This document shows, piece by piece, positions 5,579-30,429 of a DNA stretch of 64,000 bases. The notes under the pieces were generated by a model, which worked only from the letters and a program-made list of their open reading frames with translations, was not told the DNA's origin and did no database searches. The position numbers and the translations under genes were made by a program. Within the stretch, counting starts at the first letter, position 1. Each line of letters begins with the position of its first letter. The stretch is taken from assembly GCA_041499035.1 (NCBI GenBank), contig JBGQJK010000002.1:6571-70570 (forward strand), given 5' to 3'. The stretch is from Patescibacteria group bacterium. GTDB taxonomy: Bacteria > Patescibacteriota > Microgenomatia > UBA8517.

Positions 5579-5581
5579 ATC

Positions 5582-5942: not shown

Positions 5943-6339
5943 CTTAAAAAATAATATTAGTTCTGAACTCTCATTTCAAAATCGTATTTTTATGCACCCT
6001 GGTGCAGGTGGTATTTATGCTAACGAGGGACATAGTATGACAGTTAACGGCAACGGGAGTAGTAATTTTCAGGGAATCCATTTTCATCATTCAGAACCTC
6101 TAACGGTAATCAAGTCAACGGCACTGCTCAGATTAAAAGGATTAATTCGCGACAACGAATCGGTTGTCGAGTTAAGAAGTTGTGGAACAGATAACAGAGG
6201 CGTTGAGGGATTCGCCGCGCGGACAGATAAAATGTTCGACAGTTATGAGCCTCACGTGTCGTTAGGCGATCTCTTTGATTCGATAAACACACTTCGCAAT
6301 TCCTCACTTTGGCCGAAGAAATAAGTATCTCGAACAAGA

Positions 6340-11076: not shown

Positions 11077-11661
11077 ATGAAAAGAATAGTTTTGTTATTA
11101 GGTCTTTTTGGGTTAATTTTCTTTTTGCTTCCGTATAAAGTTTTGGCAGGTCCTCAATGCTCTACTAAAGGCGGAAGCTGCTCAACCGCATGCAGCATCA
11201 GCGATACCCCTTCAGGACCTTTAGACTGCCCAACCCAAAATGGAGGTAGAGGGGCACCCATTCAACAAGTTTGTTGTGTACCTCAGTCATCAGGCGGTGG
11301 TAGCAGTGGTGGATCTACTAGCGGCAGTTCTCCAGTAAATATACAAGGACGCTGCGCAATCACAGCAATCGATACAGCAATAGGCTGCATTCCTGTCTTA
11401 AACAGCGATAACGGAACGGCATTTATGGGCTTTATCCTTAGATGGGCCGTGGGCATCGGGGGCGGAATCGCTTTTCTTTTAATTCTTTACGGAGGCTTTA
11501 TGATAATGACTTCCTCGGGTAACCCTGAGCGACTTAAAGCGGGACAGGAACTTCTAACTTCGGCAATTGGAGGAATAATTCTTCTTATTTTCTCTGTATT
11601 CCTGCTTAAGGTTATTGGAATTGACATACTCGGTCTTGGATCTTATGGTTTCGGGAAGTAA
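11077..11661 (+). CDS. pilin-like two-TM protein fused to N-terminal Cys-rich secreted domain (paralog 1 of array)
   Basis: Signal peptide, 10 Cys in 'GPQCSTKGGSCSTACS...CCVPQ', Gly/Ser linker, then C-terminal 'GGFMIMTSSGNPERLKAGQELLTSAIGGIILLIF' matching the array motif. Confidence 0.5.
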   Translation: MKRIVLLLGLFGLIFFLLPYKVLAGPQCSTKGGSCSTACSISDTPSGPLDCPTQNGGRGAPIQQVCCVPQSSGGGSSGGSTSGSSPVNIQGRCAITAIDTAIGCIPVLNSDNGTAFMGFILRWAVGIGGGIAFLLILYGGFMIMTSSGNPERLKAGQELLTSAIGGIILLIFSVFLLKVIGIDILGLGSYGFGK

Positions 11662-11669
11662 AAATAGAC

Positions 11670-12005
11670 ATGTTATTGGCACAAAACTTAGACGCAATTC
11701 AAAGCGGAGGAATTCCAGGTTTTACAATCCCTAATGGCGGGCTTGCATCTTCCGGTGTTGGTACGCTAATTACATTATTAATCCCGTATATATTTGAGGC
11801 CGCGGCACTTTTACTTTTAATTTACTTCCTACTTGGGGGGTTACAGCTTATGACGTCGAGGGGAGACCCTAAAGGGATACAAGCTGCTCAGGGAAAAATT
11901 GTCAACGCTTTAATTGGTTTTGCAATTATTCTCCTCGCGGGCTTTGTAGTGCTACTATTAGGGAGATTATTAAGAATAAATGTTTTTACAGGATTAATCG
12001 TTTAA
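11670..12005 (+). CDS. pilin-like (VirB2/TrbC-like) small two-TM protein, paralog 2
   Basis: 'LLGGLQLMTSRGDPKGIQAAQGKIVNALIGFAIILLAGFVV' shares the conserved motif with its neighbours. Confidence 0.5.
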   Translation: MLLAQNLDAIQSGGIPGFTIPNGGLASSGVGTLITLLIPYIFEAAALLLLIYFLLGGLQLMTSRGDPKGIQAAQGKIVNALIGFAIILLAGFVVLLLGRLLRINVFTGLIV

Positions 12006-12010
12006 AAAAA

Positions 12011-12301
12011 ATGGATATAAATAGTATTTTTGGCTCTCCTCTTACCCAACTTACGAATGTGGCAGGGCTAGTTACCATTTTTTTAAACGCGATCTTTGTT
12101 ATTGCCGGTCTTATTCTACTTTTTTACTTTATTTTGGGGGGAATAGGAATGATAAATAGCGCCGGGAAAAACGACCCGCGGGCAGCGGAACAGGCGAAAC
12201 AGACTGTTACTTCGGCTCTTATTGGGTTTGTTGTTGTAATTGCTGCCTACTGGATAGTAAAATTAACAGGAACGCTTTTAGGGATTCAAAATTTAATATG
12301 A
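12011..12301 (+). CDS. pilin-like small two-TM protein, paralog 3
   Basis: 'ILGGIGMINSAGKNDPRAAEQAKQTVTSALIGFVVVIAAYWIV'. Confidence 0.5.
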   Translation: MDINSIFGSPLTQLTNVAGLVTIFLNAIFVIAGLILLFYFILGGIGMINSAGKNDPRAAEQAKQTVTSALIGFVVVIAAYWIVKLTGTLLGIQNLI

Positions 12302-12630
12302 CCAACCCATTCGGATCAGTAAAGATGCCTAATACCGCTCTTGGAACGGATCCTGGCTTAGCTATCGGAAAAATAGTCCAGCTTGTAATTTGGGTTTTAC
12401 TCATAAGTGCTGGTGTTTACGCACTTATTAATTTTATTTTAGCCGGCTATGCATTTATGTCTGCTGGGGATGATGCCAAAAAAATCGAGGGTGCCTGGGC
12501 AAAAATCTGGCAGACAGCACTTGGTCTGGCAGTTGCAGCTGGCGCCTTTGTGCTGGCTGCAATTTTTGGCCAGCTAATTTTTAACGATCCTACAATTCTT
12601 TTCAATCCAACTATCCCAGCCTTACCATAA
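12298..12630 (+). CDS. pilin-like small two-TM protein, paralog 4 (divergent)
   Basis: 'ILAGYAFMSAGDDAKKIEGAWAKIWQTALGLAVAAGAFVLA'; ATGA overlap with the previous gene. Confidence 0.45.
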   Translation: MTNPFGSVKMPNTALGTDPGLAIGKIVQLVIWVLLISAGVYALINFILAGYAFMSAGDDAKKIEGAWAKIWQTALGLAVAAGAFVLAAIFGQLIFNDPTILFNPTIPALP

Positions 12631-12635
12631 ATAGA

Positions 12636-13001
12636 ATGAAAAATTTATTATCGCAAGTCAGTTTTGGTACATTTAAGGGCATCGGATCTGGAAATCTATC
12701 TAATTCAACCGGTGGCATAGCAACCCTGGCCAGTTTTATTACATCTGTAATTGGTGTCATGACAATAGTTGCAGTTATCTGGTTTATTTTTGTGTTTATC
12801 ACCGGTGCAATCGGGATAATTGCAGCAGGAGGAGACAAAGGCGCTCTCGAGAATGCCAGAAAAAGGATCACTACAGGACTAATCGGTTTAGTGGTCGTCA
12901 TTATTGCAACTTTTGTGATTGATTTGATCGGATATTTGCTCGGCTTTCCTTCCAACGGAATTTTAAATATTGTTAACCTGTTTAATACTCTACCCAAATA
13001 A
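12636..13001 (+). CDS. pilin-like small two-TM protein, paralog 5
   Basis: 'ITGAIGIIAAGGDKGALENARKRITTGLIGLVVVIIATFVI'. Confidence 0.5.
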   Translation: MKNLLSQVSFGTFKGIGSGNLSNSTGGIATLASFITSVIGVMTIVAVIWFIFVFITGAIGIIAAGGDKGALENARKRITTGLIGLVVVIIATFVIDLIGYLLGFPSNGILNIVNLFNTLPK

Positions 13002-13005
13002 ATAA

Positions 13006-13323
13006 ATGATAAAAAATCCGGTACTAGGGGGCTTGGGTGCGACGGCCGGCATCACCTTTTTCCAAACATTCTTTGGTAAGCTTGTAGCGGTTGCCCTTAT
13101 AGCAGGATCCGTAATTTTTCTTTTTATGCTGATTACTGGGGCAATACAGTGGATTTCTTCCGGTGGCGACAAGCAGGCACTTGAAAATGCAAAAAGCAAG
13201 GTGACAAACGCGATCGTCGGAATTATAATTCTGTTCGCTATTTTTGCAGTAATAAATTTTGTCAGCTCTTTCTTTGGAAATATCCCAATATTAAACGCGC
13301 CTCTAAATCCCGTTACCCCTTGA
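13006..13323 (+). CDS. pilin-like small two-TM protein, paralog 6
   Basis: 'ITGAIQWISSGGDKQALENAKSKVTNAIVGIIILFAIFAVI'. Confidence 0.5.
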   Translation: MIKNPVLGGLGATAGITFFQTFFGKLVAVALIAGSVIFLFMLITGAIQWISSGGDKQALENAKSKVTNAIVGIIILFAIFAVINFVSSFFGNIPILNAPLNPVTP

Positions 13324-13362
13324 CACGGCGTTTTAAAAAGGCCAATAATATAAAATACAGAT

Positions 13363-13701
13363 ATGGGGAACTCTCTGCTCGCGCAAATAAACTTAAAGCC
13401 GGATGCTAATTCGGGCTTCAGTAACCTGGGAGGCTATACTTTACCCGGAATTATATCCGCTCTTATAAAAGGGGCGTTGGTTGTGGCAGCAATAGTTTTC
13501 TTCTTTATACTCGTCCTCGGCGGAATAAAATGGATTGCGTCGGGTGGCGATAAAGCGGCAACAGAGGGTGCAAGAAATCAAATTACGGCGGCCCTAATCG
13601 GCCTTGTAATAGTCTTTGCTGCTTGGGCAATAGTTTCCTTAATCAATACTTTCTTTAACGTAAACATTTTCTCCTTGACACTTCCTCAAGTTAGCGGTTA
13701 A
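13363..13701 (+). CDS. pilin-like small two-TM protein, paralog 7
   Basis: 'VLGGIKWIASGGDKAATEGARNQITAALIGLVIVFAAWAIV'. Confidence 0.5.
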   Translation: MGNSLLAQINLKPDANSGFSNLGGYTLPGIISALIKGALVVAAIVFFFILVLGGIKWIASGGDKAATEGARNQITAALIGLVIVFAAWAIVSLINTFFNVNIFSLTLPQVSG

Positions 13702-13746
13702 AACGGGCTTGCTCAATCTTGCCCCCTAGTCTAGAATTGTCTTTAT

Positions 13747-14022
13747 ATGGACCCTGCGCGTATAACTGACCTCCAAACAGTCTTTGTTAATGTGGTAAAG
13801 GTTGCTATTGCTGCAGCCGGAATAGCTTTGTTTGTCATGCTTCTTATTGGTGGATTTAAATATATAACCTCGGGTGGGGATCCTAAGGCAACTGAGGGCG
13901 CGCAAAGAACTATCACTTATGCAATCGGCGGACTAGTCCTTATTCTTGCGGCCTACTTAATACTTTTACTCATACGAACCATAACAGGGGCTCAAGTGAC
14001 CAACTTTACCGTGGTCCAATAA
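13747..14022 (+). CDS. pilin-like small two-TM protein, paralog 8
   Basis: 'LIGGFKYITSGGDPKATEGAQRTITYAIGGLVLILAAYLIL'. Confidence 0.5.
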   Translation: MDPARITDLQTVFVNVVKVAIAAAGIALFVMLLIGGFKYITSGGDPKATEGAQRTITYAIGGLVLILAAYLILLLIRTITGAQVTNFTVVQ

Positions 14023-14042
14023 ACCATAATAATAAATCACAA

Positions 14043-16571
14043 ATGAAACGCTTTCTGCCCATTTTCGCAACCCTCTTCGGGCTTTCCTTTTTTTTTCCAA
14101 AAGCTTCAAAAGCCCAATACACACCTTTAAACGATGTCCCAATCCCCCAGATTCACTTTCCCTGTGACAAACAAACTCAACCCGAATTTGCTTCTTTAAG
14201 ACCTTACCAGGCAGCAGCCTGCGGAGACGCTGACAAAGCACTCTACTGCAGCAACGATCTTATATTCCTGGAGACTTTTAACAGCTTTCCGGAATGTGGA
14301 GGCCAAGCGCCCGCAGGGGAGGGAAAATTTATTTGCAACACAAATAAATTTATTCCAAACCATAATTTAATTGTAGATTTGGCCAATAGCGATCTCCCCA
14401 TCCTTGGAAATACCGAGTTAACTAAGGACAGCATCAACTCGACCGATAAAATTAGTGATGCGGGAAAAATGAATGAGTATGCAAGCTGGTACCTTAACGG
14501 AACTCTTAATAGAGCGGAGTACGGACAAATTGACCCTACCCAGATTGCCGATTATTCGGGACCAATTCAAAAAGTCATGCCCCAAGTAATTCTTGAGGCC
14601 GATAGAATAGGCACAATCGCCTCAGCTTCAGCAATGACAACATATATTCCGGAAAATGACAACGGCGGTACTGCGGCCCCACAAGCCACTACTGAGCCCC
14701 AAAACCATAACCAGATAGTTGTTTGCTATAAGAAACAGGCCCAACTTATTCCGCCCATCATCACAAATTTTTTTGGGCTTGGAGCAGTAGGGCTAGGCAA
14801 GGCACTTCCCGGGGATTGTTACGATGGGGCTGGTCACATGACAGATGGGCTAAGCATACTGAGACTTGAAAGTTGGGATAAATCCAGTCCTACTGTTGAT
14901 GTTGCCGGCATTGCCAGCTGGCTTCTTAAAATTTTTCCTCCGAATATTGTGTCTATACTTACAAGTAGCACTGCCATCCTCGATCGCTGGCCATATAAAT
15001 TTCCCCCTCTCCCTTGGTCGGATAAAAACGGTCAGCCTTTTTCTAGTCCGGACGCATATCAAAAGGCTTATAACGAATGGCGGGGGCAACTCTGTGCTTA
15101 TATTTCATTCCCAATACTGGGAACCAAGTTATTTTGTGGCGGAATTCCGGGCGTAACAAATAATGATTTTGCAGACCTTTTTCCCTTTATTCCCCTCGGG
15201 AACACTGTTGATAAACACGGCTCCGAAACCGCATATATAGCGGAAATTCAGCCACTGGGAGAGACCCAGATTGCTGACCCTTCGTACGATGTACCAAAAA
15301 ATGCTCCCCTTTGGTTCTCACACACCGAAGAAGTAATGAACATGTCAAAGTTCTTAAACTCCAGTTATACCCCCCTCGACTGCACAGTAACTAACGGTAA
15401 ACAAACCTGTCAGCCACTTGCCAGTGTAGCGGAACCTAAAACTACGGAGGCGAATGTCTGCAACGTAGTAAATGTAAGAACAAATTCGGGAGATAACCTC
15501 TTCCCCGGCCAAACACATGGAGTCGTGGTCCCCAATGTTCACTACACGATCACACAAGTCCCGTGCGAGAAAAAAATAGTAATACAGACGATCGGAAAAC
15601 CCCCTAATGAAAAAACAGTAAGACGAACCGTTATCACTTGCGATGCCGAAATAAATATAACAATCCCCACAATTACAAAGAGTCCATCACTTGACCCGAT
15701 ATTCCAAAGCACGGTTGCTTATTCCGGGTCTACATTCAGGAAGATCTATCCCAAAGTGGAAACGGGTGCCCCTGTAAATTGTATTGCGGATATTCCGGGT
15801 TCAACCGGAGTTGATTACACGGGAACAGATAACGTACCCGCGGGTGGAAACAGCTCGTTTAAATATAAAAATCCTGCGCTAGGTTCAAACAATGCCTCCG
15901 AACTATATTTTCCACACCTCGGTTCAGTCTATGACTACTTTCTTAAAGGCATTCAAACCGCTCTACGCCCGCAAGGATTCGGAGCCCCAACACCAATAAG
16001 CGGAAAGTACTGCAGTCCGACAGTACCAACCCAGTGCAATGCCAACGTCCCCGATTCAGCCGTCTCCAGCAAATTTCTTGGCGCTTTCAAAACCAACTTT
16101 ATACTCGTTGCCGACAGGTGGACTCTTGACTGCCCCGGGCCGCAATACAATTTGGCTGCTCAATGTTACAACTACGTTGTCAGCGAGGCCCAGAAAGCCG
16201 GTGTTAATCCTGCGTTTGCTTTGTCTATTTGGCTTCATGAATCAGATGCAAGCAACTATTGTCATGGCGGCCTCTCTACTCAGGATTTTGGACAAAATGT
16301 TGCCAGCGAGTATCAAAATATAGTTGCTCAGTTAACTGGATTCTTGGCTATGGCAAAGCAAAAGCTCTGCAACGGCGTTCCGGGATTCCCTGAACCCATG
16401 GCCGGTTGGCTAAGTAGATATAAAAGTAGTTCCGGTTCATGTAATCCGGCAGACTCTGATGCAATGAGCTATTACCCTGAAATTCGGGATACATCCTGGG
16501 GAGTGCTAACTAATTGTGTGAAAGGTACCAAATTCGGAATTACCTGGCCCACCGATATGAGTTGTCCCTAA
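14043..16571 (+). CDS. large secreted Cys-rich protein (842 aa), possible lysozyme-like C-terminal region
   Basis: Signal peptide 'MKRFLPIFATLFGLSFFFPKASKA', >30 Cys. C-terminal 'YNYVVSEAQKAGVNPAFALSIWLHESDASNY' resembles the catalytic E-S region of lysozyme-like/SLT folds; this is weak. Confidence 0.45.
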   Translation: MKRFLPIFATLFGLSFFFPKASKAQYTPLNDVPIPQIHFPCDKQTQPEFASLRPYQAAACGDADKALYCSNDLIFLETFNSFPECGGQAPAGEGKFICNTNKFIPNHNLIVDLANSDLPILGNTELTKDSINSTDKISDAGKMNEYASWYLNGTLNRAEYGQIDPTQIADYSGPIQKVMPQVILEADRIGTIASASAMTTYIPENDNGGTAAPQATTEPQNHNQIVVCYKKQAQLIPPIITNFFGLGAVGLGKALPGDCYDGAGHMTDGLSILRLESWDKSSPTVDVAGIASWLLKIFPPNIVSILTSSTAILDRWPYKFPPLPWSDKNGQPFSSPDAYQKAYNEWRGQLCAYISFPILGTKLFCGGIPGVTNNDFADLFPFIPLGNTVDKHGSETAYIAEIQPLGETQIADPSYDVPKNAPLWFSHTEEVMNMSKFLNSSYTPLDCTVTNGKQTCQPLASVAEPKTTEANVCNVVNVRTNSGDNLFPGQTHGVVVPNVHYTITQVPCEKKIVIQTIGKPPNEKTVRRTVITCDAEINITIPTITKSPSLDPIFQSTVAYSGSTFRKIYPKVETGAPVNCIADIPGSTGVDYTGTDNVPAGGNSSFKYKNPALGSNNASELYFPHLGSVYDYFLKGIQTALRPQGFGAPTPISGKYCSPTVPTQCNANVPDSAVSSKFLGAFKTNFILVADRWTLDCPGPQYNLAAQCYNYVVSEAQKAGVNPAFALSIWLHESDASNYCHGGLSTQDFGQNVASEYQNIVAQLTGFLAMAKQKLCNGVPGFPEPMAGWLSRYKSSSGSCNPADSDAMSYYPEIRDTSWGVLTNCVKGTKFGITWPTDMSCP

Positions 16572-16619
16572 AGGTAAAGGGCCTTTGATTTTTTACGTCA
16601 AACCATTAGAATAAACATA

Positions 16620-18185
16620 ATGTCCAAGCCGCTCAAAAAAATTGTATTTTCTTTTTTAACTGCACTCGTCCTTCTTTTTTCTTTTGCTCCATTTTTTAGA
16701 GCAAAAGCTGCAATCCCACCGGGAGGAATAAATGTCGGCATTGACCCAAGTAATCTTTGGAGTCATACGTGGTATGCCGAGGAGAATCCGTTTGCCTGGT
16801 ATCAAAAAGTTTACGACGATTCTATATCCCCAACCAGCGAGATTTTTGGAGAACGCTATACGGCCGCACAAGTCCAGTGGGTTATTTACGGGCTTTTCTC
16901 CTTCTTCTGGAACTTTATACCTGGAAACCCGCAACTGACAACCTGCGCTATTAGCGGGGATATCAGCAGCTGCCAAACCTTGCTTCAAAAACTCCAAAGT
17001 GCTATCAAAATAGGTGATAGTAGCGGGCCGACGCCGGCATCAACTACGGCATCTATATTTACTTTTGCTGGCCAGAATCCGATTTCAGGAGTTTATTATT
17101 TTAAAAACCTGATCGGGAAATTTTCCCTAATATCCGAGGTTCACGCCCAGGGGTTTGGCTACACAAACGCAGCAAATTCAATTGTAGGTATTTGGAGAGT
17201 TACCAGAAATATTAGCTACGGCTTTATGGTATTGGCCATAATCATTTTTGCTTTTATGATTATGTTTAGAGTAAAAATCAATCCCCAGGTAGTTATTACA
17301 GTTCAACTCGCAATACCGAGACTGGTATTCGCATTAATCCTCATTACTTTTTCATATGCAATCGCAGGGTTCGCGATCGATTTAATGTATGTAACAATCG
17401 GGCTTTTAGCAGTATTAATAAACGGGGCTCAGTTAACAAGCGAGACACCTATCCAGCTGTTCCAAAACTTTGTCTCGAGCAATAGTTTTGTATTATTATA
17501 TAACTACTGGATACATTTATTGGTCGCAAGTATTGTTGCCACGGTTTCGCCCGGTGGAGGATTCGGGCTTGGAATTCTTCTTGTCCTATTCGCAATAATT
17601 GCTATTCTTGCAGTTATATGGTGGTCCCTCAAAATTGTTTGGATGGTAATTAAAACGTTTGTGTCAATTATTCTGACGATCGTCGTTGGACCGTTAGAAA
17701 TAATGCTCGGGACAGTCACTGAATCTACAGGTTTTGGCGCGTGGCTTAAAAGACTGATATCTTATTTGGCGGTTTATCCTATGATGTGTTTAATGTTTTT
17801 TCTGGCATTTTTCTTCCTCAATCAGGGCGGGGACACAGCCGGATTCGGAGGGACAATTCCGTTTAACCCGGCAACAAATTTCATAGGTCCTAATTCGTGG
17901 GTTCCGCCTATGTCATTTTTAACGGGAAACGGACAAAGGTTAATATGGATTCTTGTAAGCTTTGTTATTTTCAGCGAGATAACAAAAGTCGCAGAAATGG
18001 CACAAAAATTTATTGAGGGTAAGCCGTGGGAGTATGGAACTGCTGTTGGAGAAGTGAGACAGGGTGCAAAGAACGTTGGTCAGTCCGCAACCGACTTCGC
18101 AAGACTATATGCCTCCACTAAGGCTATCGGAGGAACTGCACAAGGAGTAGTCAACGCTCTAAAGTGGCTAGCATTTATGCCGTAG
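16620..18185 (+). CDS. VirB6/TrbL-like polytopic membrane protein (type IV secretion inner-membrane component)
   Basis: Signal/TM, ~150-aa extracytoplasmic N-domain, then 6-8 TM helices rich in aromatic and Gly residues. Its position upstream of a VirB4-like ATPase fits VirB6/TrbL architecture. Confidence 0.5.
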   Translation: MSKPLKKIVFSFLTALVLLFSFAPFFRAKAAIPPGGINVGIDPSNLWSHTWYAEENPFAWYQKVYDDSISPTSEIFGERYTAAQVQWVIYGLFSFFWNFIPGNPQLTTCAISGDISSCQTLLQKLQSAIKIGDSSGPTPASTTASIFTFAGQNPISGVYYFKNLIGKFSLISEVHAQGFGYTNAANSIVGIWRVTRNISYGFMVLAIIIFAFMIMFRVKINPQVVITVQLAIPRLVFALILITFSYAIAGFAIDLMYVTIGLLAVLINGAQLTSETPIQLFQNFVSSNSFVLLYNYWIHLLVASIVATVSPGGGFGLGILLVLFAIIAILAVIWWSLKIVWMVIKTFVSIILTIVVGPLEIMLGTVTESTGFGAWLKRLISYLAVYPMMCLMFFLAFFFLNQGGDTAGFGGTIPFNPATNFIGPNSWVPPMSFLTGNGQRLIWILVSFVIFSEITKVAEMAQKFIEGKPWEYGTAVGEVRQGAKNVGQSATDFARLYASTKAIGGTAQGVVNALKWLAFMP

Positions 18186-18192
18186 AATGCAA

Positions 18193-20478
18193 CTAAGCTT
18201 CAAGGCCTTTATTGGTAGCATCTGTGGGGAGTCCCTTGGCTTGGTCTGGAGGGATAATTCCGATTCTTCCTATTCTATAACGTATCCTGTCTATGGCTGA
18301 TACTACCTTGTTTGTCATAACCCCTCTATCTTTGGTTGCTACTTTATCTGCATCTTGCGCCAGCCACTCCTTATACTGAGGGAGTGATCTTATTCCATCC
18401 CAAAAAGCTAGCACCAACTTTTTTTTATAATTCCTTACCTCATCCGTAACGTATTTATCTGTAGCTTTTTTGTTAGCTTTGGCTTGTTCCACTTTTCTTC
18501 TGTCTTTTTTATCCGCTTCGGTTAAGGCTGCCTCGCCTCCTTCTCTAATTCCATTATATATCCCCCTGAAGCGGCCGTTAAACACAACCTGCGCGTTTAG
18601 TGCAATCCCCATATTGGCGGCGAATTTTTCCCAAAAAGTTTTTTCTTTAAGTTCCCGTATATCCCAATCTGTTCTCATCATGTACTGGAAAAGTCCGATT
18701 TTTTCCCGACCGGCAATAAATATTCCAAGGGCTGCCTGATTATATGTTTTTGGATGAAGACCCTCCCACTGCAGCTCACCAAGATGAAATGCTCTTTCTG
18801 CGGGAAGTTCTACCATTTTTCTAAGAACGGGGTCATATCCCTGTCCTTTTCTATACCCCCATCTCATCTCGTCAAATGACCTTTTCCCAACATCTACAAA
18901 CTTCATTTTTATCTTACTCTCGACAAATTGCCTATTACCATCCTTATCCAAATCTTCCACCTCTTTTACCGTCCCGTCATCATTAAGCTCGTGCCCCTTA
19001 CCTGTCCAACTTTTAAAATAGGGAACCGCAAACCTATCAGGATATTTTTGGAAAGCGCCATCGGGTCCAAAACCTCTGATTTCAGGTTTTAAGAACCTAT
19101 AGACCTGAGTAAAAATATTGGGGCCAATTACTTTAATTCTATCGCAGGAAGTCATTCCCCCCATCTCATGGGATATATAGTTACCTTCCGGACGATCAAG
19201 TTCTTTATCATATTCTCTATGGTAAACCTGACCCCCAAGGTCGGAAGCCATTCCGGTTACTCTAAGCATCTCCCAAGCGATAAAGCGGGCATCCCGCGCC
19301 TCTTTTTTAGCCATGTTACCTTTAGCCTCGCTTCCACCCCCTATAAACCTTTCAATTTGTTCAAAAACATGCTCTGCGTCGTTCCACGAAGACTCAACCA
19401 AAATGTTTCCTTTCTCCGTAAGGAGCCCTCTAATGCCTTTGTGTTTTTTATCAGGATCATTAAAGTCGACCGGCTCTTTGTTCCATGACCACGGCTCGCC
19501 AATCCATTTAACCAAAGTAGCATTTAATGTTCTTCCTTGCCTTTCTTCGGGTCTTAAGAAAAGGTCATCTACTTCCTGATCCGAAACCTTAAATAAAAAC
19601 TTAAAACCGGGTCGTGTGACTAAATCTTTAAACTGCTCATAATTTTCGGACTGTGCAGCAAGTTCCAGACATTGGAGCGAAACACTCATTGCGTCCCCAA
19701 ACTCGTGGCCCTTTCTAAATTCCGCTCCGCCTTCTGTTTTTGTAAGAATGCTCTTCCTATCTACCCCTTCTACCCCAGTAAATCTACCCTCGGCGTCGCA
19801 AAGAATTCTCATCGCTTCATGGGTAAGGCTGCCCATAAAATAAAATTGGACTAGGCCCTCCAGATTTTCCGTCTGGTTCCAGACATATCTAGCCATTTTA
19901 ACCATATCTTCTCTGGCAGTCATTTCACCATCAACTCTGGTGAGGACCTCCGCAAGGGCTTTGCGCTGTTCGTCCGTACCGGGTTCGTAAGACACCGTCT
20001 GGCCAATTATCGACTCCTGCTTGATCTTTCCATCCTGATCCTGAACGACCCTCCTTTCCGTCTCCGCCCAAACAACAGTAGAGGTATAAGCATATCCCGG
20101 AAAAGAAAAGGTTGCCTCCCGCTGTTGGTCTCCATTTTCATCTACAACACTTTTGTAAGTAAGGTACCCCATATCCTGAAGATCCTGAAGCGTTTCGTTC
20201 ATTACAGAAATTCTGCCTTCCAGATTAGCTTTCACTTGATCCATACTCCATTCGGCAACTGTGCCGTCCGGCTTAAGGATCATATTTTCAAAGATGGCCA
20301 TATACGACCTACTGGCGTCGATTAATTGTTTGGGGTCTACCGAACGTTCTATGACCTCAATATTTGGAAGTCCTTCTCTAAGATGTCTTGCAGCTTCGGG
20401 TTGTTTATTTTTGTCGTCTTTACCTTGTTCCGTACTAGCACCAGTCGGGAGTTCAGTCATACAAAAATTGTAGCACAA
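18193..20478 (-). CDS. hypothetical large soluble protein (761 aa), opposite strand within T4SS-like locus
   Basis: Long ORF with no TM segment, P-loop or motif I recognise; highly charged. Confidence 0.4.
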   Translation of the reverse strand: MCYNFCMTELPTGASTEQGKDDKNKQPEAARHLREGLPNIEVIERSVDPKQLIDASRSYMAIFENMILKPDGTVAEWSMDQVKANLEGRISVMNETLQDLQDMGYLTYKSVVDENGDQQREATFSFPGYAYTSTVVWAETERRVVQDQDGKIKQESIIGQTVSYEPGTDEQRKALAEVLTRVDGEMTAREDMVKMARYVWNQTENLEGLVQFYFMGSLTHEAMRILCDAEGRFTGVEGVDRKSILTKTEGGAEFRKGHEFGDAMSVSLQCLELAAQSENYEQFKDLVTRPGFKFLFKVSDQEVDDLFLRPEERQGRTLNATLVKWIGEPWSWNKEPVDFNDPDKKHKGIRGLLTEKGNILVESSWNDAEHVFEQIERFIGGGSEAKGNMAKKEARDARFIAWEMLRVTGMASDLGGQVYHREYDKELDRPEGNYISHEMGGMTSCDRIKVIGPNIFTQVYRFLKPEIRGFGPDGAFQKYPDRFAVPYFKSWTGKGHELNDDGTVKEVEDLDKDGNRQFVESKIKMKFVDVGKRSFDEMRWGYRKGQGYDPVLRKMVELPAERAFHLGELQWEGLHPKTYNQAALGIFIAGREKIGLFQYMMRTDWDIRELKEKTFWEKFAANMGIALNAQVVFNGRFRGIYNGIREGGEAALTEADKKDRRKVEQAKANKKATDKYVTDEVRNYKKKLVLAFWDGIRSLPQYKEWLAQDADKVATKDRGVMTNKVVSAIDRIRYRIGRIGIIPPDQAKGLPTDATNKGLEA

Positions 20479-20583
20479 AAAGAAGAGCCAAGAACTTGTG
20501 AAAAGGGATTCCCCTTGCGTCTAGTGCTTCACGAGATAACCTGTAATGAGAGCTGCCCTACTTCGTAGAAGCAAGCTCCGCTT

Positions 20584-21627
20584 ATGGAACAGCACGCAAT
20601 ACCACAAAATGTATCTTCATACCAATTTAAATTGGTTGGAGATATGACGCTTAAACAGTTCTTTCAACTTGCGGGGGGTATTTTGGCCGGCATAATTTTT
20701 TATTCGTCCCCGCTTCTCGGCATAATCAAATGGCCGCTCGCAATTTTATCGGTACTACTTGGAATCGGACTTGCGTTTCTCCCTCTTGAGGAGCGTCCTT
20801 TGGAAAAATGGATCTTCGCTTTCTTTAAAGCAATCTACGCGCCTACTATTTTTTCCTGGCAAAAAGGCGCCACACGCCCAAAGTTTTATCAGGACGAAAC
20901 CCCTACAGCTTCCAACCCCGAACAGGACGCGGCTCTTAAAACTTATTTGGCAACGACTTCTCAAACTTCCACAGCCTTAGGAAATCTGGAAAAGGCGGAG
21001 AGCGGGTTTCTTGCCCAACTCACCGGGCTCTTTTCCCTGGGCCAGGGTACCACCCCCGCGCCCGCCCCCGTAGCGCCCCCGGTAGCCGCGCCGCCAAAGC
21101 CGGCGGTTGTACCGATTCCGGAAAACTCGCCGGTAAAAATTCCGGCAGCACCAACTCACCTGATCGTTGAAGAGAAGTTGATACCCGTAGTTCCCCAAAA
21201 CCAAGTCACCACAAACCAGGTTGTTGGGATTATTGCAGGCAACGAAATGATCTCGACCAAACAGGCAATGTTTTCTGTAGACGCAGCTCCACCCAATCCC
21301 CCCACCTCACCCAATGTAGTGGTAGGCCAGGTCGTAGACCAGGACAGAAAAATCATAGAGGGAGCAATTATGGAAATTAAAGACTCAATGGGACGCCCAA
21401 TAAGGGCCCTCAGAAGCAACAAGGTGGGACACTTCATTACGGTTACCCAACTTGATAACGGAAGATATGAAATTGTTACCGAAAAAGACGGCTATGAATT
21501 TACCCCGGTCTCGTTTGACGCAAACGGCAATCTTATTCCGCCAATTTTGGTTCAAGGAAAAAGGTTGGCACCTGAAGTAGAAGAGGCGCCCCCGGCAATA
21601 GTCAAACCGGCTTACTCAATCAATTAA
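20584..21627 (+). CDS. membrane protein with Pro-rich linker and C-terminal carboxypeptidase-regulatory-like (transthyretin-fold) domain
   Basis: Two N-terminal TM helices, 'PAPAPVAPPVAAPPKPAVVPIP' linker, and 'VVGQVVDQDRKIIEGAIMEIKDSMGRPI...DNGRYEIVTEKDGYEF' resembling the CarbopepD_reg/Cna-B pattern. Confidence 0.4.
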   Translation: MEQHAIPQNVSSYQFKLVGDMTLKQFFQLAGGILAGIIFYSSPLLGIIKWPLAILSVLLGIGLAFLPLEERPLEKWIFAFFKAIYAPTIFSWQKGATRPKFYQDETPTASNPEQDAALKTYLATTSQTSTALGNLEKAESGFLAQLTGLFSLGQGTTPAPAPVAPPVAAPPKPAVVPIPENSPVKIPAAPTHLIVEEKLIPVVPQNQVTTNQVVGIIAGNEMISTKQAMFSVDAAPPNPPTSPNVVVGQVVDQDRKIIEGAIMEIKDSMGRPIRALRSNKVGHFITVTQLDNGRYEIVTEKDGYEFTPVSFDANGNLIPPILVQGKRLAPEVEEAPPAIVKPAYSIN

Positions 21628-21631
21628 TAAT

Positions 21632-22324
21632 ATGTTAAATATTCCAAAAATACCTTACTTATCGGTTCCGGATAAGCCAATCACTTCGACGACTCAAAAT
21701 CACCTGCCTATCGCCGACGTAACAAACGATGTTGCTCTTTATAAGGACGGTGGGGCCGCCCTTGTCATGGAGTCAACTTCCTTAAACTTTGGGCTTCTTA
21801 GTGAAAAGGAACAACAGGCAGTGATAGCCGCATATGCGGCCATGATTAACTCTCTTTCTTTCTCGGTCCAGATAATAGTTAAGACACAGCGAAAAGATAT
21901 TAGCTCCTATATCAGCTACATTGACCAGCAGGCCAAAAAACTTACCCACCCTCTTCTTCAAAAATTGATGGCGGAATACCGCGGATTCATTATGGACTCG
22001 GTTAAAAAGAAAAACGTCTTGGGAAAGCGGTTTTTTGTTGTACTTTACCTTTCCCCCCTTGAACTTGGCGTCGGAAAATCAATAGCGGCAGTAACCAAAA
22101 GGGGCGAAATGCTTCCTTTTACAAAATCGTATGTCGTAAAAAAGACAAAAATAGTTCTCTACCCCCGGCGAGACCACCTGATGCGGCAGGCGGGGCGCCT
22201 CGGAATTAAATTTAGACAACTTACGACTGCCGAACTTATTGATCTTTTCTATTTGGTTTATAACCCGGAACGTCCAGCAGTTAAAAAAGAACCTGAGGTT
22301 ATATTAGAACATAAGCAGCAATGA
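21632..22324 (+). CDS. hypothetical protein; start codon overlaps the stop of the VirB4-like gene's upstream neighbour (translationally coupled)
   Basis: ORF ends in ATGA overlap with the VirB4-like gene; no motif I recognise. Confidence 0.35.
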   Translation: MLNIPKIPYLSVPDKPITSTTQNHLPIADVTNDVALYKDGGAALVMESTSLNFGLLSEKEQQAVIAAYAAMINSLSFSVQIIVKTQRKDISSYISYIDQQAKKLTHPLLQKLMAEYRGFIMDSVKKKNVLGKRFFVVLYLSPLELGVGKSIAAVTKRGEMLPFTKSYVVKKTKIVLYPRRDHLMRQAGRLGIKFRQLTTAELIDLFYLVYNPERPAVKKEPEVILEHKQQ

Positions 22325-24186
22325 AGATACAAGTTCCCGTTAATCAAGTTCCACCTCCGGCGCCCGCTGCAAGTCTTCTTGTTGTGGACAATCACACTTC
22401 AACCCCAGTCATCAAAACTCAGGAACTAAAACCAAAGATGGAAAGCCCCGCTGCAAGTGTGGCTCAAGGAGCAAGTGTTCTTGATATTATTGCCCCCCAG
22501 GCGATCGAAGAAGATTTTGATTTTTTTAAAATCAACGATGTATATTTCCGGACCATTTTTGTGGGCGGTTACCCCAGATTTGTGGCCCCGGGGTGGCTTG
22601 AGCCGGTTGTAAACTTTGATTCAAGCCTTGATATATCTTTCTATGTTTACCCCGTGGACGGAAAAAGCGTTCTCGATGATTTACGGCGCAAAATTGCGGA
22701 GATGGAGGCGGAAATTTCAACAGATATAGAACGCGGCAGAATCGTTGACCCTTCAACCCAAGCCAAACTTGAAGACGCAAGGAGTCTGCAGGAACAACTT
22801 GTCAAAGGCATTGAAAGATTCTACGAATTCAGCTTTTATATAACCATTCCCGCAAACACCGTTGAGGAGCTTAACCACGTGACCAAACAAATTGAGTCCC
22901 AACTCGGCTCACTTTTAATTGTCAGTAAACACGCCCTACTCGACCAGGAAGCCGGTTTTCTTTCAACCGCCCCGTTTGGGATGGACAGACTAAATATAAC
23001 GAGAAATATGGACACAACCTCTGTTGCTACAACTTTTCCTTTAACTTCAACGGAACTTTCAAGTGACCGTGGTGTTCTTTACGGAATAAACTCACAAAAC
23101 GAGTCTTTTATTATTTTCGACCGGTTTTCCCTTGAAAACGCAAACATGACCATTTTTGCTACCTCCGGCGCCGGAAAATCCTACTTTGTTAAGTTGGAAG
23201 CCCTAAGGTCACTTATGATTGGAACGGAAGCTATAATAATTGACCCAGAAAGCGAATATAAACCCTTGGCCCAAGCCGTAGGTGGAGAATATATTTCATT
23301 TAATTTTAATTCCCCTGCTAAAATCAACCCTTTTGACCTTTCTCAAGTCCGTGAAGAGGGCGAAAACCAGCTGGGGCAAAAAATTCTTTCGCTCCATTCA
23401 CTAATGAAAGTTATTATGGGAGTAATCACCCCGACCCAGGAGGCACTCCTCGACAGGGCTCTCGTTATGACCTACCGAAACAAAGGAATAACTATGGACC
23501 CCGACACACAATCTAGGGAACCCCCTCTTATGGAAGACTTGTATAAAACTTTAATCGGCATGGAGGTTCCCGACGCACTGGATCTTTCCGCCCGCATCGA
23601 AAAATTTGTCCGCGGGAGCTTCGTTGGAATTTTTGACAAGCAAACAAATATAAATATAACAAATCCTTTTACCGTTTTTTCGGTCAAAGACCTGCAGGAT
23701 GCCCTGCGTCCCATCGCCATGTTTATAATTCTTGACTATATTTGGACGCGCGTTAAGAAAGACTTAAAGAGAAGGATTCTGATAATTGATGAGGCCTGGC
23801 ACATGATGCGCTATCCCGACACTGCGCAGTTTCTTTGGAGTGTGGTTAAGAGGGCCCGTAAATACTTCCTGGGACTCACTACAGTAACGCAGGACGTCGA
23901 AGACTTCCTGGCGCAAGATATTGGTAAGGCAATCATTACAAACAGCTCCATGGAGGTTCTCCTAAAGCAATCCCCCGCGGCAATTGACAAAATCGGAGAA
24001 GTGTTTTATTTAAGCCAGGGAGAAAAACAACTACTTTTGGCCGCAAATGTCGGCGAAGGAATATTTTTTGCCGGACCCCACCATGCACCAATAAGAGTCG
24101 TGGCTTCCGAGGATGAAAACATCTTAATTACAACCAAGCCCCAGGAAATTGCGAAAGTAAACCCAAATCAATATGAAGCAAAATAA
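22321..24186 (+). CDS. VirB4/TraC-family type IV secretion ATPase
   Basis: Walker A 'FATSGAGKSYFVK', Walker B 'RILIIDEAWHMM' (the DEAW box typical of the VirB4/CagE/TrbE family), ~620 aa. Confidence 0.75.
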   Translation: MKIQVPVNQVPPPAPAASLLVVDNHTSTPVIKTQELKPKMESPAASVAQGASVLDIIAPQAIEEDFDFFKINDVYFRTIFVGGYPRFVAPGWLEPVVNFDSSLDISFYVYPVDGKSVLDDLRRKIAEMEAEISTDIERGRIVDPSTQAKLEDARSLQEQLVKGIERFYEFSFYITIPANTVEELNHVTKQIESQLGSLLIVSKHALLDQEAGFLSTAPFGMDRLNITRNMDTTSVATTFPLTSTELSSDRGVLYGINSQNESFIIFDRFSLENANMTIFATSGAGKSYFVKLEALRSLMIGTEAIIIDPESEYKPLAQAVGGEYISFNFNSPAKINPFDLSQVREEGENQLGQKILSLHSLMKVIMGVITPTQEALLDRALVMTYRNKGITMDPDTQSREPPLMEDLYKTLIGMEVPDALDLSARIEKFVRGSFVGIFDKQTNINITNPFTVFSVKDLQDALRPIAMFIILDYIWTRVKKDLKRRILIIDEAWHMMRYPDTAQFLWSVVKRARKYFLGLTTVTQDVEDFLAQDIGKAIITNSSMEVLLKQSPAAIDKIGEVFYLSQGEKQLLLAANVGEGIFFAGPHHAPIRVVASEDENILITTKPQEIAKVNPNQYEAK

Positions 24187-24188
24187 TT

Positions 24189-27038
24189 ATGGCCGCTATA
24201 GAAGTTCCTAATATTGATCTAAAAACAGCTAAGGCTCTTAGAAAGGCTTTTGGTTATTTCTATTCTGACGTAGATCCCGAAAAGACCGAAGCATTAAGAA
24301 AGGCTTTTGGTTATTTCGGTGATCTAGAAAAAAACGCTCCTGATATTAAAGAGCCTGTCGATTTTAAAGATCCGGATACAGGAATTGCCTTCAAAACGTC
24401 TGCCGACTTTAGAGCCGAATTAAAAAAACTTGGACTTCCGGAAGGCACACCGGTTAAAAACATCGGGATTGAGGTTGAGAGGTGGTATGAAACGCTCCAA
24501 CGGGGCGAGACAACAATGGCCGGGGCTCCGGAACCCGAAAACGCTGCAAATGTACCTAATGCAGGACTCCGGGAAGCCCAAAAAATAGAATACGAACAGC
24601 GACTGGCTGCAAAAATGGCCGCTGATGAAAATGCCAAGGCTGACGTTGAAAGAATGATTAAGAGATATAAAGACCGAACTATAACGGTAGTGCCAAAGGA
24701 TCTCCAAACTCTTACTTTAGATCCGAACCAAAAAATGACTATTTATAGGTACGCTCAAGCTGCAGCTTCTGACCCGGGAATAACACAGGAGGAAGTTGCA
24801 AATATTATGCGGGGTGCAATCCCTGAAGAGCTAAGGGATAGTATCCCCGAACAAGCTATTCAAAATACGGCGCGGGGTTTTGTCGAGAAGGCGCGGGGTT
24901 TTGCCGAATATAAAACGGCTGAAGAGATTCCAACCGAAACTACAATTATGAATCCAGCCGGACCGCCGGCCGCTCTCAATGATCCTAACAATAAAGTTTT
25001 TCAGGAAATAATTCCTGAAGAGGAAGTGAGAGTGGCCCTTGCATCAGATGCCCAGGTTATATCTTATGCATTTGCAGCAAGATACGACACGGAGACAACA
25101 TTAACGGCGCCACTTTTCGGTGGAGATACTACGCTCACATGGTCATTTTATGGTCCGCCATCTACGGAGTTTGAGCCGGTAAAAGGTGAAAACAAAAATG
25201 GTATTAAACTCAACCTTAGCGTAATTCACGAAGCCGGAAGCGATGTAAAAGAGTTTGTTGCCAAAGTGCCCAAGCTAGGAGTTTCCGGGGAGGGAAGAGA
25301 AGTTGCTTCAACAGGCATTGTCCCGACCAGGGTTCCCTATCAATATACGGGCGACGAAGCTCTCGCCAAGCGGGCCCAAGGTTTCTTGCAGAAGGAAAGA
25401 TTCGGAAGATTTAGGGGGTTCAACACTCAAGGCGAATACGCTAAATACGTTACGCGTATTTCCAAAACCTCAGAATTGTCCAGAGATGTCCCCGTTACCC
25501 CTGGCGTTATGGCGGGTTCAACAGATGGTGCTGTAAGGATACTGTTTACACAAATGGCCTTAAAAAAGGCCCCTCTTTTACTCGTACCGAAAGTAACAGA
25601 AGCTATAATTAAGGGTGGTTTCCAAACCACTGCTTTAGCATCACTCGCTACTGAAGGTCGGGTTATATATTTTGCAGGGCTTGGGAAATACTCATTTAAC
25701 ATTGTCAACCTTTCCGGGGCATCCTCTGAACTCTATATAGCTGGTCTAAACTTCGGGAACAGGGCTTTCGGACTAGGTCTTGCAAAAACCGGAGGAAAGG
25801 TTGTGGCCACCGGAATAATCACAAAAGGCGCCACAGGTCAAATAACAACCCGAGCCCTCCCCGCCCTTTTTTCAAAAGTTGGCTCTTGGCTCGGTTCAAT
25901 TGCCCCTATCATTGGCAATATCCTGGGAGCGATATCTGGCTGGATATTCGGAAAGGTACTTGACAAAATCCCCTGGAAAAAAGTTAAAGAATGGTCTGCC
26001 GCAATTCTCGGAACCGCGGCCGCAATAATTTCCTTACCCTTTGTAGGCTTGGCGGCAGCGTTAGGAATAGGTGGGGCTACAACTGTAATTTCTGCGCTTT
26101 TTGGTGGCGGCCTTGGAGGATTAACTTTAGGCGGGGTTGGAGCTAGTGTGGGAGGGTTTCTTGGCGCTCTTATTCTCACAACACTAGGCAACATCGCGGG
26201 ATGGCTTTTTGTAGTATTTATTTCCTTCTCATTAATGGTCACTCTAATTCTTTTTATAATTAATGCAGGCGCTTATGTAGTTCCCCAAATTCCTGAGGTT
26301 GCGACGGGCGCTGTAGGACGAACGGGTGTTAACGTGGTATGTTCAACCGATAAAGGCCCAGTGGGTGTCAGCGGGCCAACGTCCTCTTCTCCTATCGCAA
26401 ACCGCGCATGGGAAATCGTATTTGATCTTTACCAAGGTTTTTGGTGCTTTTGGAATAGATCTCCCAGCAACGTTCCTTGGAATGGCCCCCCCAGACCTGA
26501 TTTTCCCAATGACATCGTCAAATATCCACCAAACTACCCGCAGCCAATATATTTTGACTATAATCTTTACGCAGTAAACAAAAACCCTTCAGAAAAAAGC
26601 GGACCGGACCTTTTTTGGTGTACAGACCTGGTTATCAAGGCATATCAAGAAACCGGCCACAACATCCCACCAGACCTGGGGGTCGCCGAAATGCACGCAC
26701 ACTGGCCTGTAAACAAAATTATTGCCGCAAAAGACGCAACGCCTCAAAATATAGTTCCGGGAAGCGCAGTTTTCTTCAGAGTAACTTCCGGTGATTTCGC
26801 AAACCAGTTAAATCATGTGGGAATTGTCTACTCTGTAGACCTCGCGGGAATTACCGTTGTCGAATCAAATAATGCCGTTAAAAGCGAAAGAATAACTTTT
26901 ACATTTACTACGGCAGGATCCTGTACGCCTTTGTGTCTCAAAAATGCGACTTTCCAGGAATGCGGCTGTTATGGTCAAGTAAATGGCGTGGCGAACCTTC
27001 CCGGAATGCTGGTGGATTCTTTTGGATTACCATACTAA
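24189..27038 (+). CDS. T4SS-associated cell-wall hydrolase-like protein: N-terminal repeat domain, Gly-rich multi-TM region, C-terminal CHAP/NlpC-P60 domain
   Basis: C-terminus 'FWCTDLVIKAYQETGH...HVGIVYSV...VVESN' has the Cys...His...polar pattern of CHAP/NlpC-P60 peptidases. Mid-region 'GGGLGGLTLGGVGASVGGFLGALIL' TM helices. Tandem 'ALRKAFGYF' repeats at the N-terminus. Confidence 0.55.
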   Translation: MAAIEVPNIDLKTAKALRKAFGYFYSDVDPEKTEALRKAFGYFGDLEKNAPDIKEPVDFKDPDTGIAFKTSADFRAELKKLGLPEGTPVKNIGIEVERWYETLQRGETTMAGAPEPENAANVPNAGLREAQKIEYEQRLAAKMAADENAKADVERMIKRYKDRTITVVPKDLQTLTLDPNQKMTIYRYAQAAASDPGITQEEVANIMRGAIPEELRDSIPEQAIQNTARGFVEKARGFAEYKTAEEIPTETTIMNPAGPPAALNDPNNKVFQEIIPEEEVRVALASDAQVISYAFAARYDTETTLTAPLFGGDTTLTWSFYGPPSTEFEPVKGENKNGIKLNLSVIHEAGSDVKEFVAKVPKLGVSGEGREVASTGIVPTRVPYQYTGDEALAKRAQGFLQKERFGRFRGFNTQGEYAKYVTRISKTSELSRDVPVTPGVMAGSTDGAVRILFTQMALKKAPLLLVPKVTEAIIKGGFQTTALASLATEGRVIYFAGLGKYSFNIVNLSGASSELYIAGLNFGNRAFGLGLAKTGGKVVATGIITKGATGQITTRALPALFSKVGSWLGSIAPIIGNILGAISGWIFGKVLDKIPWKKVKEWSAAILGTAAAIISLPFVGLAAALGIGGATTVISALFGGGLGGLTLGGVGASVGGFLGALILTTLGNIAGWLFVVFISFSLMVTLILFIINAGAYVVPQIPEVATGAVGRTGVNVVCSTDKGPVGVSGPTSSSPIANRAWEIVFDLYQGFWCFWNRSPSNVPWNGPPRPDFPNDIVKYPPNYPQPIYFDYNLYAVNKNPSEKSGPDLFWCTDLVIKAYQETGHNIPPDLGVAEMHAHWPVNKIIAAKDATPQNIVPGSAVFFRVTSGDFANQLNHVGIVYSVDLAGITVVESNNAVKSERITFTFTTAGSCTPLCLKNATFQECGCYGQVNGVANLPGMLVDSFGLPY

Positions 27039-28869: not shown

Positions 28870-29012
28870 GCACTGTTGATAAGTGCAAAAAAGTCTGATT
28901 TTGAATTTATGTTTCGGATCATGTTTGTGTGAATACCAGCCACGCTGTTTTGTTGATAAAGTTGTGGATAATTCTAAAGCTTGTGTTGATAAGTCTACTC
29001 TTTTATCAAAGC
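28870..29012. promoter_or_regulatory. oriC-type DnaA-box cluster between dnaA and dnaN
   Basis: TTGTGGATAA (28962-28971, perfect TTATCCACA on the - strand), TGTTGATAA at 28874, 28951 and 28984, TTATCAAA at 29003; AT-rich flank 28840-28860. Confidence 0.6.
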
Positions 29013-30378: not shown

Positions 30379-30420
30379 ATTTGTTTTAAATTTGCTGTAA
30401 GCATATGTGTATTTACAAAG

Positions 30421-30429
30421 TTATCCACA
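30421..30429 (+). promoter_or_regulatory. consensus DnaA box TTATCCACA in the dnaA/rpmH intergenic promoter region
   Basis: Exact 9-mer seen in sequence. Confidence 0.55.

Follow-up and report, generated by a model that had tools for sequence, protein, structure and literature searches.

A stretch of 64,000 nucleotides from a Patescibacteria group bacterium of the Microgenomatia (assembly GCA_041499035.1, contig JBGQJK010000002.1, positions 6,571 to 70,570), referred to here as the window, contains a locus for a type IV secretion system (T4SS) at positions 11077-27038. The genes are arranged in the order pilins, a gene for a secreted protein of 842 amino acids (aa), a gene for a polytopic membrane protein, a minus-strand gene, prgI, a trsD-like gene, virB4 and a hydrolase gene, and are followed by dnaN (minus strand), dnaA (minus strand) and yidC (plus strand). 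Every open reading frame (ORF) that had been listed in an earlier reading made from the letters of the DNA, the sequence-only reading, was recovered at its position by ORF listing and translation. However, the description of the locus as a co-directional block did not hold, because a gene for a 755-aa protein on the minus strand (18193-20460), overlooked earlier, interrupts it between the gene in the VirB6 position and prgI. The locus was confirmed by hidden Markov model (HMM), structure and synteny tests to encode a T4SS of the Gram-positive type, similar to the mating-pair formation class FATA (MPF-FATA). Very probably, it represents the T4SS that Patescibacteria typically carry on the chromosome and inherit vertically. 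The origin of this system would lie in conjugation machinery of monoderm bacteria (MPF-FATA, with a layout nearest to that of pGO1/pSK41 trs), and the window contains no DNA-processing genes.

The central component is a 621-aa ATPase (22321-24186, plus strand) of the VirB4 family (CD1110/MPF-FATA type), an assignment that had been proposed earlier, with a DEAW Walker B motif noted, and that is borne out by several matches. The protein scored 368.6 bits against the NCBIfam model NF045971 ('VirB4-like conjugal transfer ATPase, CD1110 family'), for which the cut-off is 325, and it matched PF19044 in Pfam (E 7e-30), the solved C-terminal domain of VirB4 (PDB 4AG5, E 1e-45), TrwK of R388 (8e-4) and, over its full length, TrsE of pGO1 (26% identity, E 9e-43). 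Both the Walker A (ATSGAGKS) and the Walker B (ILIIDEAW) motifs are intact. The locus was compared with the loci of its 80 best VirB4 relatives, taken at species level from Woesebacteria/Microgenomates, and counts out of 80 given below refer to this set. The ATPase is 64-90% identical to these relatives, nearly all of which are labelled Patescibacteria group, Candidatus Woesebacteria or Microgenomates, the remaining labels being generic, and the organism is accordingly placed among Woesebacteria-type Microgenomatia. When the median global identity was calculated among close pairs of Woesebacteria genomes, VirB4 (0.84) was found to be more conserved than DnaA (0.73), YidC (0.67) and DnaN (0.65). 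That VirB4 is conserved beyond even DnaA implies that purifying selection is strong and acts on a core function. The envelope-exposed parts of the T4SS were far less conserved among close pairs (0.36-0.37).

The gene upstream of virB4, which overlaps it by 4 nt and encodes a 230-aa protein (21632-22324, plus strand), had been called a translationally coupled unknown; the coupling stands as far as the overlap is concerned, while the protein is now recognised as TrsD/TraC-like. It matched TrsD in NCBIfam (E 1.2e-6), the precomputed Pfam match of the exact protein in a public collection is PF26593 ('TraC-like'), and a profile of 35 of its orthologues was aligned by hhalign with TrsD of pGO1 (probability 74%, E 3e-5, 179 columns). 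No match to the 230-aa protein was obtained among solved structures or, by hhalign, with the N-terminal domain of PrgJ. When compared with the 894-position model VirB4_plasma, which describes the VirB4 of Mycoplasma integrative and conjugative elements (ICEs), the 230-aa protein corresponds to positions 103-234 and the 621-aa ATPase to positions 293-875. Furthermore, the trsD-like gene and virB4 form a single in-frame ORF of 832-914 aa in four related loci (L055:9071-11815, L060:9203-11812, L074:9305-11803 and L080:1877-4381), and these natural fusions show that the pair is a split VirB4. On the strength of the TrsD match, the complementary coverage of VirB4_plasma, the alignment with pGO1 TrsD, the PF26593 assignment and the fusions, the 230-aa protein is identified as a detached N-terminal domain of VirB4, an arrangement also found among Gram-positive conjugation systems in the pGO1 subclass.

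The trsD-like gene is directly preceded, in 78 of the 80 loci, by a gene for a PrgI/VirB3-like membrane protein, which in the window encodes 347 aa (20584-21627, plus strand). Its N-terminus resembles PrgI/VirB3 (PF12666) and is followed by a Pro-rich linker and by a C-terminal domain similar to CarboxypepD_reg (PF13620), a member of the transthyretin-like clan. The sequence-only reading had described this protein as a membrane protein with a transthyretin-like domain; the domain was recovered as a weak match (E 4.5e-4), and the protein as a whole was reassigned, by its N-terminus, to the PrgI/VirB3 family.

The eight pilin-like paralogues with two transmembrane (TM) segments that had been recognised earlier at 11077-14022 are indeed VirB2-like pilins. 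Pilin 1 (194 aa, 11077-11661, plus strand) is followed on the same strand by seven further genes at 11670-12005, 12011-12301, 12298-12630, 12636-13001, 13006-13323, 13363-13701 and 13747-14022. Five of the eight pilins passed the gathering cut-off of 26.6 bits for PF18895 (T4SS_pilin), with 28.1 (pilin 1), 27.7, 39.1, 35.1 and 35.7 bits, two fell just under it (26.2 and 23.3 bits), and pilin 4 had no PF18895 match in the Pfam scan. All eight have two strong hydrophobic segments separated by an 'SGGD(P/K)' loop, and weak matches were found to the NCBIfam model NF045849, a Mycoplasma ICE pilin-like protein. Their pairwise identity is low (mean 27%, maximum 41%), in agreement with the published value of ~25%. 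The VirB2-like hairpin of pilin 1 is preceded, in the long form, by a signal peptide, a region with 8 Cys residues and a Gly/Ser linker (11077-11424); the public gene call is shorter (11425-11661, 78 aa), and the true start is uncertain.

Two proteins of the locus are predicted to act on the cell wall. The 842-aa protein (14043-16571, plus strand), noted earlier as a giant Cys-rich secreted protein, does contain 24 Cys residues and a signal-like N-terminal segment. It has more than 300 homologues, and none of the 120 listed carries a Pfam domain; a sequence search of the PDB, including one with its C-terminus, gave no match. An AlphaFold model built with 54 homologues was confident (predicted local distance difference test score, pLDDT, 83.6; predicted template modelling score, pTM, 0.70), and it was the fold search alone, in which Slt, FlgJ and MltC were named, that exposed a lysozyme-like domain in its C-terminus. 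According to this model, the C-terminal ~170 aa form a lysozyme-like domain of the muramidase/lytic transglycosylase superfamily, with Glu733 in a 'WLHES' motif as the candidate catalytic residue; the Glu is kept in 43 of the 54 homologues. The N-terminal ~640 aa are beta-rich and gave no informative fold match.

The second protein, a modular wall hydrolase of 949 aa (24189-27038, plus strand), consists of a cytoplasmic N-terminal region of ~560 aa, a Gly-rich TM bundle (approximately residues 570-690) and an extracellular CHAP-like domain (809-894). The bundle contains the motif 'INAGAYVVP', for which the family consensus is 'INSGAY.VPP' with five invariant positions. No similarity to TrsG or TrsF of pGO1 was detected by BLASTP, and the CHAP region found no match in the PDB by sequence. 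When 31 orthologues were compared, the membrane scaffold was found to be conserved and the enzyme head to vary: it is Peptidase_M23 in 11, CHAP in six, Amidase_2 in two and NlpC/P60 in one. The protein had been described as a CHAP-domain hydrolase with Gly-rich TM segments, of which the TM bundle is clear and the CHAP domain only borderline. It had also been likened to VirB1-like, PrgK or TraG hydrolases. This likeness holds for the pair of activities, which is here split over two proteins: together, the 842-aa and 949-aa proteins are predicted to supply the muramidase and the peptidase that are combined in VirB1-like proteins such as PrgK. Near its 5' end, the gene for the 949-aa protein contains an exact 21-nt direct repeat (24240-24260 and 24297-24317, 57 nt apart), by which the peptide 'ALRKAFGYF' is encoded twice at the protein's N-terminus.

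The VirB6 position is occupied by a polytopic membrane protein of 521 aa (16620-18185, plus strand) with a signal-like segment and approximately eight hydrophobic segments, and the gene is kept in this position in 57 of the 80 loci. Among the 120 listed of its 1200 homologues, none carries a Pfam domain; one UniRef cluster among the matches is named 'Type IV secretion system protein'. In Microgenomatia, few VirB6 proteins have been reported, and extreme divergence has been suggested (PMC12102498). Position and topology make the 521-aa protein a candidate, and only a candidate, for the VirB6 role.

The gene that interrupts the block, on the minus strand at 18193-20460 (the ORF reaches 20478 if a TTG start is used), encodes a soluble and highly charged protein of 755 aa. 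A minus-strand ORF of 440-1083 aa is found at this slot in all 57 loci in which both neighbours were located, and the products are all soluble, with ~15% basic and ~16% acidic residues. Nevertheless, these proteins fall into at least eight BLAST clusters, the two largest of which remain unlinked even in profile-profile comparison. Among close genome pairs the median identity of the minus-strand protein is 0.20, which is at noise level, as compared with 0.37 for the polytopic neighbour and 0.84 for VirB4. The 59 positional homologues gave no significant Pfam match (two isolated weak matches, best E 2e-4) and no match to defence systems in PADLOC beyond noise, and the protein of the window had no NCBIfam and no fold match. 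Both a defence island or hotspot and a disguised coupling protein or relaxase were considered and rejected, since no P-loop, nuclease or defence signal was seen. The family to which the protein of the window belongs has 78 representatives among 1.84e9 proteins; three distant members that were looked up share the same local context, convergent with a gene of the size found in the VirB6 position, and on the one long contig among them the full T4SS neighbourhood is visible.

An example of this diversity is given by the loci L016 and L018, whose VirB4 proteins are 98% identical. Approximately 90% nucleotide identity flanks, on both sides, a 4-kb stretch (L016:3807-7894) without detectable nucleotide similarity and with sharp recombination breakpoints, which takes in the polytopic gene for the most part, together with the minus-strand gene except for its first 60 codons. 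These first 60 codons are nearly the same in the two loci (59 of 60 identical), and the proteins are unrelated thereafter. In this pair the gene in the VirB6 position and the minus-strand gene are inherited together as a cassette, but this does not hold as a rule: between the window and L007 the two genes show 34% and 51% identity, respectively, while between the window and L018 the former shows 47% and the latter no detectable match. The cluster type of the minus-strand gene tracks the VirB4 phylogeny weakly, the nearest neighbour being of the same type in 32 of 55 cases as compared with 24.2 +/- 4.3 at random. From these sequence patterns we infer that the slot is probably under diversifying selection and recombination. 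A tentative suggestion is that the product may be a translocated effector, or a determinant of host specificity, evolving against host bacteria in an arms race. If this were true, it would be the first candidate substrate of the Patescibacteria T4SS, the function of which has been described as 'completely unknown'; in either capacity, as substrate or as specificity factor, the candidate can be tested experimentally. No description of this gene was found in the literature searched, and it is absent from the text of PMC12102498.

The chromosomal setting of the locus is conserved. The sequence-only reading had placed it within 1 kb of dnaN and the origin, and dnaN (27711-28826, minus strand) starts 672 bp past the last locus gene, with dnaA (29017-30378, minus strand) beyond it; both were identified by Pfam. 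Sites resembling DnaA boxes (TTATCCACA, with at most one mismatch) are present four times in the dnaN-dnaA spacer (28874-28992) and twice just upstream of dnaA (30371-30429), and their total of 29 in the window exceeds that in any of 100 shuffled sequences. Between the locus and dnaN lies a small gene for a bitopic, membrane-anchored protein of 229 aa with an Ig-like Big_5 domain (27038-27727, plus strand; PF13205, E 7e-11). The Big_5 gene is found in only four of the 80 loci and appears to be a lineage-variable tail gene, the membership of which in the locus is uncertain. In the gene-order comparison across related genomes that the earlier reading had called for, the T4SS locus keeps its order and adjoins dnaN in 68, dnaA in 66 and yidC in 61 of the 80 loci, with dnaN and dnaA on the minus and yidC on the plus strand. 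This conserved order suggests that the locus is a vertically inherited chromosomal machine and not an ICE. Pfam scans of approximately 45 ORFs across the entire window revealed no VirD4, relaxase or integrase, as had been stated earlier for the locus itself, and the other genes of the window are housekeeping and envelope genes only. Walker A motifs in the long ORFs were found in VirB4, DnaA, TsaE and an ABC ATPase; two further matches, in ORFs with SpoIID and VanW domains, belong to non-ATPase families and are probably due to chance. The proposal of a chromosomal, non-conjugative machine is thus supported both by the absence of conjugation genes from 64 kb and by the conserved synteny, and the data show chromosomal inheritance, the identities of VirB4, the TrsD-like and PrgI-like proteins, the pilins and the hydrolase folds, and the lack of DNA-processing genes within the window.

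Several observations weigh against this reading of the locus. The TrsD match of the 230-aa protein scored 28.5 bits, far under the NCBIfam full-length cut-off of 200, the match of the 347-aa protein to PF12666 is marginal (27.4 bits, cut-off 27), and the CHAP match of the 949-aa protein, although it covers nearly the whole model, is borderline (25.4 bits, gathering score 26). The 521-aa protein had been called VirB6/TrbL-like, and of this description its polytopic nature and its expected position were upheld; homology to VirB6/TrbL was not, as every sequence test was negative. Pfam (including scans of 42 orthologues), NCBIfam and a PDB profile search provided no link to VirB6, TrbL or PrgH, and hhalign gave probabilities of 3% for TrsL of pGO1 and 0.2% for PrgH of pCF10. 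In addition, no candidate for a VirB8-like bitopic protein with an NTF2 fold was found in the Pfam and NCBIfam scans of the locus. The scans for DNA-processing genes covered the 64-kb window, and a distal VirD4 or an unrecognised relaxase may exist; it has been reported that VirD4 homologues are distant from virB4 in most Patescibacteria (PMC12102498). Finally, the evidence that such a locus is essential concerns Saccharimonadia, a class other than Microgenomatia, and uptake of DNA or nutrients has also been proposed for the Patescibacteria T4SS (PMC11665869).

With these reservations, a working scheme can be drawn from what is common to T4SS families. VirB4 and the TrsD-like protein would dock on the PrgI (VirB3-like) protein and on the 521-aa polytopic protein, the latter acting as a VirB6-type channel. 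The pilins would polymerise into a pilus or conduit, and the hydrolases would open the peptidoglycan of the cell itself and possibly that of the host. As a whole, the machine would serve not for conjugation but for an exchange with a host cell that depends on contact, in which proteins are most likely exported. By analogy with the Saccharibacteria, in which a homologous cluster is essential for epibiotic growth of Southlakia epibionticum, it may have a role in the dependence of the organism on its host cell.

As an alternative to a resident chromosomal system, the locus could be an integrated conjugative element, either intact or decayed; its relaxase, coupling protein and integrase would then lie beyond the coordinates of the locus. 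In favour of this, its components have homologues among the conjugation proteins encoded by Gram-positive plasmids and ICEs, and a tmRNA gene (tag ATNLFEAPAYNVVYA) and a cluster of six tRNA genes (four for Ser and two for Arg) are located 5-9 kb upstream, at 2164-5943 of the window. However, the locus is not directly adjoined by a tRNA gene, the tRNA/tmRNA cluster has no integrase nearby, and integrase, relaxase and type IV coupling protein (T4CP) are all absent from the 64 kb. A 19-nt imperfect direct repeat does bracket the locus (at 9551 and 28937), but its copies lie inside the SpoIID coding region and the DnaA-box cluster, and since approximately 0.05-0.5 such pairs are expected by chance, it was judged a chance occurrence. 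The GC content of the locus (0.445, as compared with 0.420 in the rest of the window), its occurrence at the same place beside dnaN and dnaA in 61-68 of the 80 species, and the conservation of VirB4 beyond that of DnaA also speak against an integrated element. With the synteny on the one hand and no integrase or att sites in the window on the other, this explanation was rejected; it is highly improbable and close to refuted.

Two further readings accept a chromosomal machine and differ in what it does. One is that it imports DNA or host nutrients, in the manner of ComB of H. pylori or the archaeal Ced system, instead of exporting. VirB4 weakly matches CedB (E 8.5e-13) and CedD, there is no coupling protein or relaxase, as in ComB, and nucleotide biosynthesis is expected to be missing from the organism; uptake of nucleotides has been put forward as a candidate role in a review (PMC11665869). 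Nevertheless, the score of VirB4 against CedB is 47.8 bits, as compared with 368.6 bits against the conjugative VirB4 family, the locus contains no channel resembling ComEC or CedA, and the direction of transport is not a property that can be read from sequence. Import is considered unlikely. The other reading is that the product of the locus is no more than a pilus or adhesion organelle at the surface, used for attachment to the host, with VirB4 as its assembly motor and without translocation. This would be in line with the diversity of the eight pilins (mean identity 27%), which fits a surface variation that matches hosts or evades recognition, with the absence of a T4CP and with the fast evolution of the envelope-exposed parts. 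In contrast, Patescibacteria already adhere and move by means of type IV pili (PMC11665869; 2025 FEMS review), and the hypervariable cytoplasmic protein encoded in the locus is more easily understood as cargo than as part of a pilus, which makes an exclusively adhesive function quite unlikely.

Other genes of the window lie further from the locus. Upstream, the minus strand at 6340-8241 encodes a protein of 633 aa for which Pfam and NCBIfam gave no match; it has a single strong TM segment, and its C-terminal half is rich in repeats. Its gene lies just upstream of a group of DUF5657, bPH_2 and SpoIID genes. Downstream, a small RNase H/RVT_3-like gene (33769-34185, plus strand) is flanked by genes for an O-antigen-ligase-like protein and for a DUF4012 protein.

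Among conjugation systems of Gram-positive bacteria, the Prg/Pcf system of pCF10 from Enterococcus faecalis resembles the locus in having a PrgI-family protein and, in PrgJ, a CD1110-family VirB4. In contrast to PrgJ, however, the VirB4 of the window is split into a TrsD-like protein and an ATPase, and the window lacks the adhesin PrgB, the VirD4 protein PcfC and the relaxase PcfG; hhalign linked the proteins of the window neither to PrgH nor to the N-terminal domain of PrgJ. PrgK of pCF10 is a bifunctional wall hydrolase with lytic transglycosylase and CHAP domains on one chain, whereas the two activities are predicted on separate proteins here. The trs region of pGO1/pSK41 from Staphylococcus aureus, which represents the MPF-FATA subclass with TrsD, runs parallel to the locus in its order of TrsB (a CagC/VirB2-like pilin), the VirB3-like TrsC, TrsD, the VirB4 protein TrsE, the membrane protein TrsF and the CHAP protein TrsG. 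It differs in that pGO1 is a conjugative plasmid with a relaxase, VirD4 (TrsK), the TrbL-family protein TrsL, a topoisomerase and a single-stranded DNA-binding protein (SSB), and has a single pilin-like gene.

Within the Patescibacteria, the closest experimental counterpart is the T4SS cluster SEML1_0006-0019 of Southlakia epibionticum, which was found to be essential by transposon sequencing (Tn-seq), including its pilin array, and which resembles Gram-positive conjugative systems (Wang et al. 2023, Cell, PMC10633639). Like the locus described here, it is a chromosomal cluster, with low locus-tag numbers, subunits of the Gram-positive type and no recognisable coupling or relaxase protein, and it carries peptidase and lysozyme homologues downstream of virB4. 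In contrast, it belongs to the class Saccharimonadia and has six pilins as compared with eight, and its essentiality is experimental.

In a survey of 3,035 genomes (Quinonero-Coronel et al. 2025, Microb Genom, PMC12102498), the picture of which is repeated in a 2025 FEMS review, the VirB4 proteins of Patescibacteria formed a monophyletic clade nested in MPF-FATA; TrsD, PrgI/VirB3 and VirB6 were reported in the T4SS, together with almost no relaxases, VirB2 arrays of 2-11 genes with ~25% identity that were abundant in Microgenomatia, and, for Paceibacteria and Microgenomatia, a location close to dnaA/dnaN. The locus agrees with this description in its MPF-FATA-related VirB4, the TrsD-like and PrgI/VirB3-like genes beside virB4, the divergent pilin array, the lack of a relaxase and the location near dnaA and dnaN. 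Apart from the hypervariable minus-strand gene, it is therefore ordinary for the phylum, its system having been published for Patescibacteria (CPR bacteria, after the name candidate phyla radiation) in 2023-2025, and as a whole it is conceptually nothing new but one more case of a near-universal Patescibacteria system, which proved essential in the single species that was tested. What is gained is resolution for the Microgenomatia, in which homologues of VirB6, and homologues of VirB3 close to virB4, were both few in published HMM surveys. Relative to the survey, this Woesebacteria lineage has a PrgI-like gene that does adjoin virB4 through the trsD-like gene (78/80), a conserved polytopic protein that holds the VirB6 position, and two hydrolase modules. 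In one of these, the lysozyme-like domain predicted in the large secreted protein would supply the wall-hydrolase function, and the other is carried on a membrane scaffold on which the enzyme head is exchanged among CHAP, M23, amidase and NlpC/P60.

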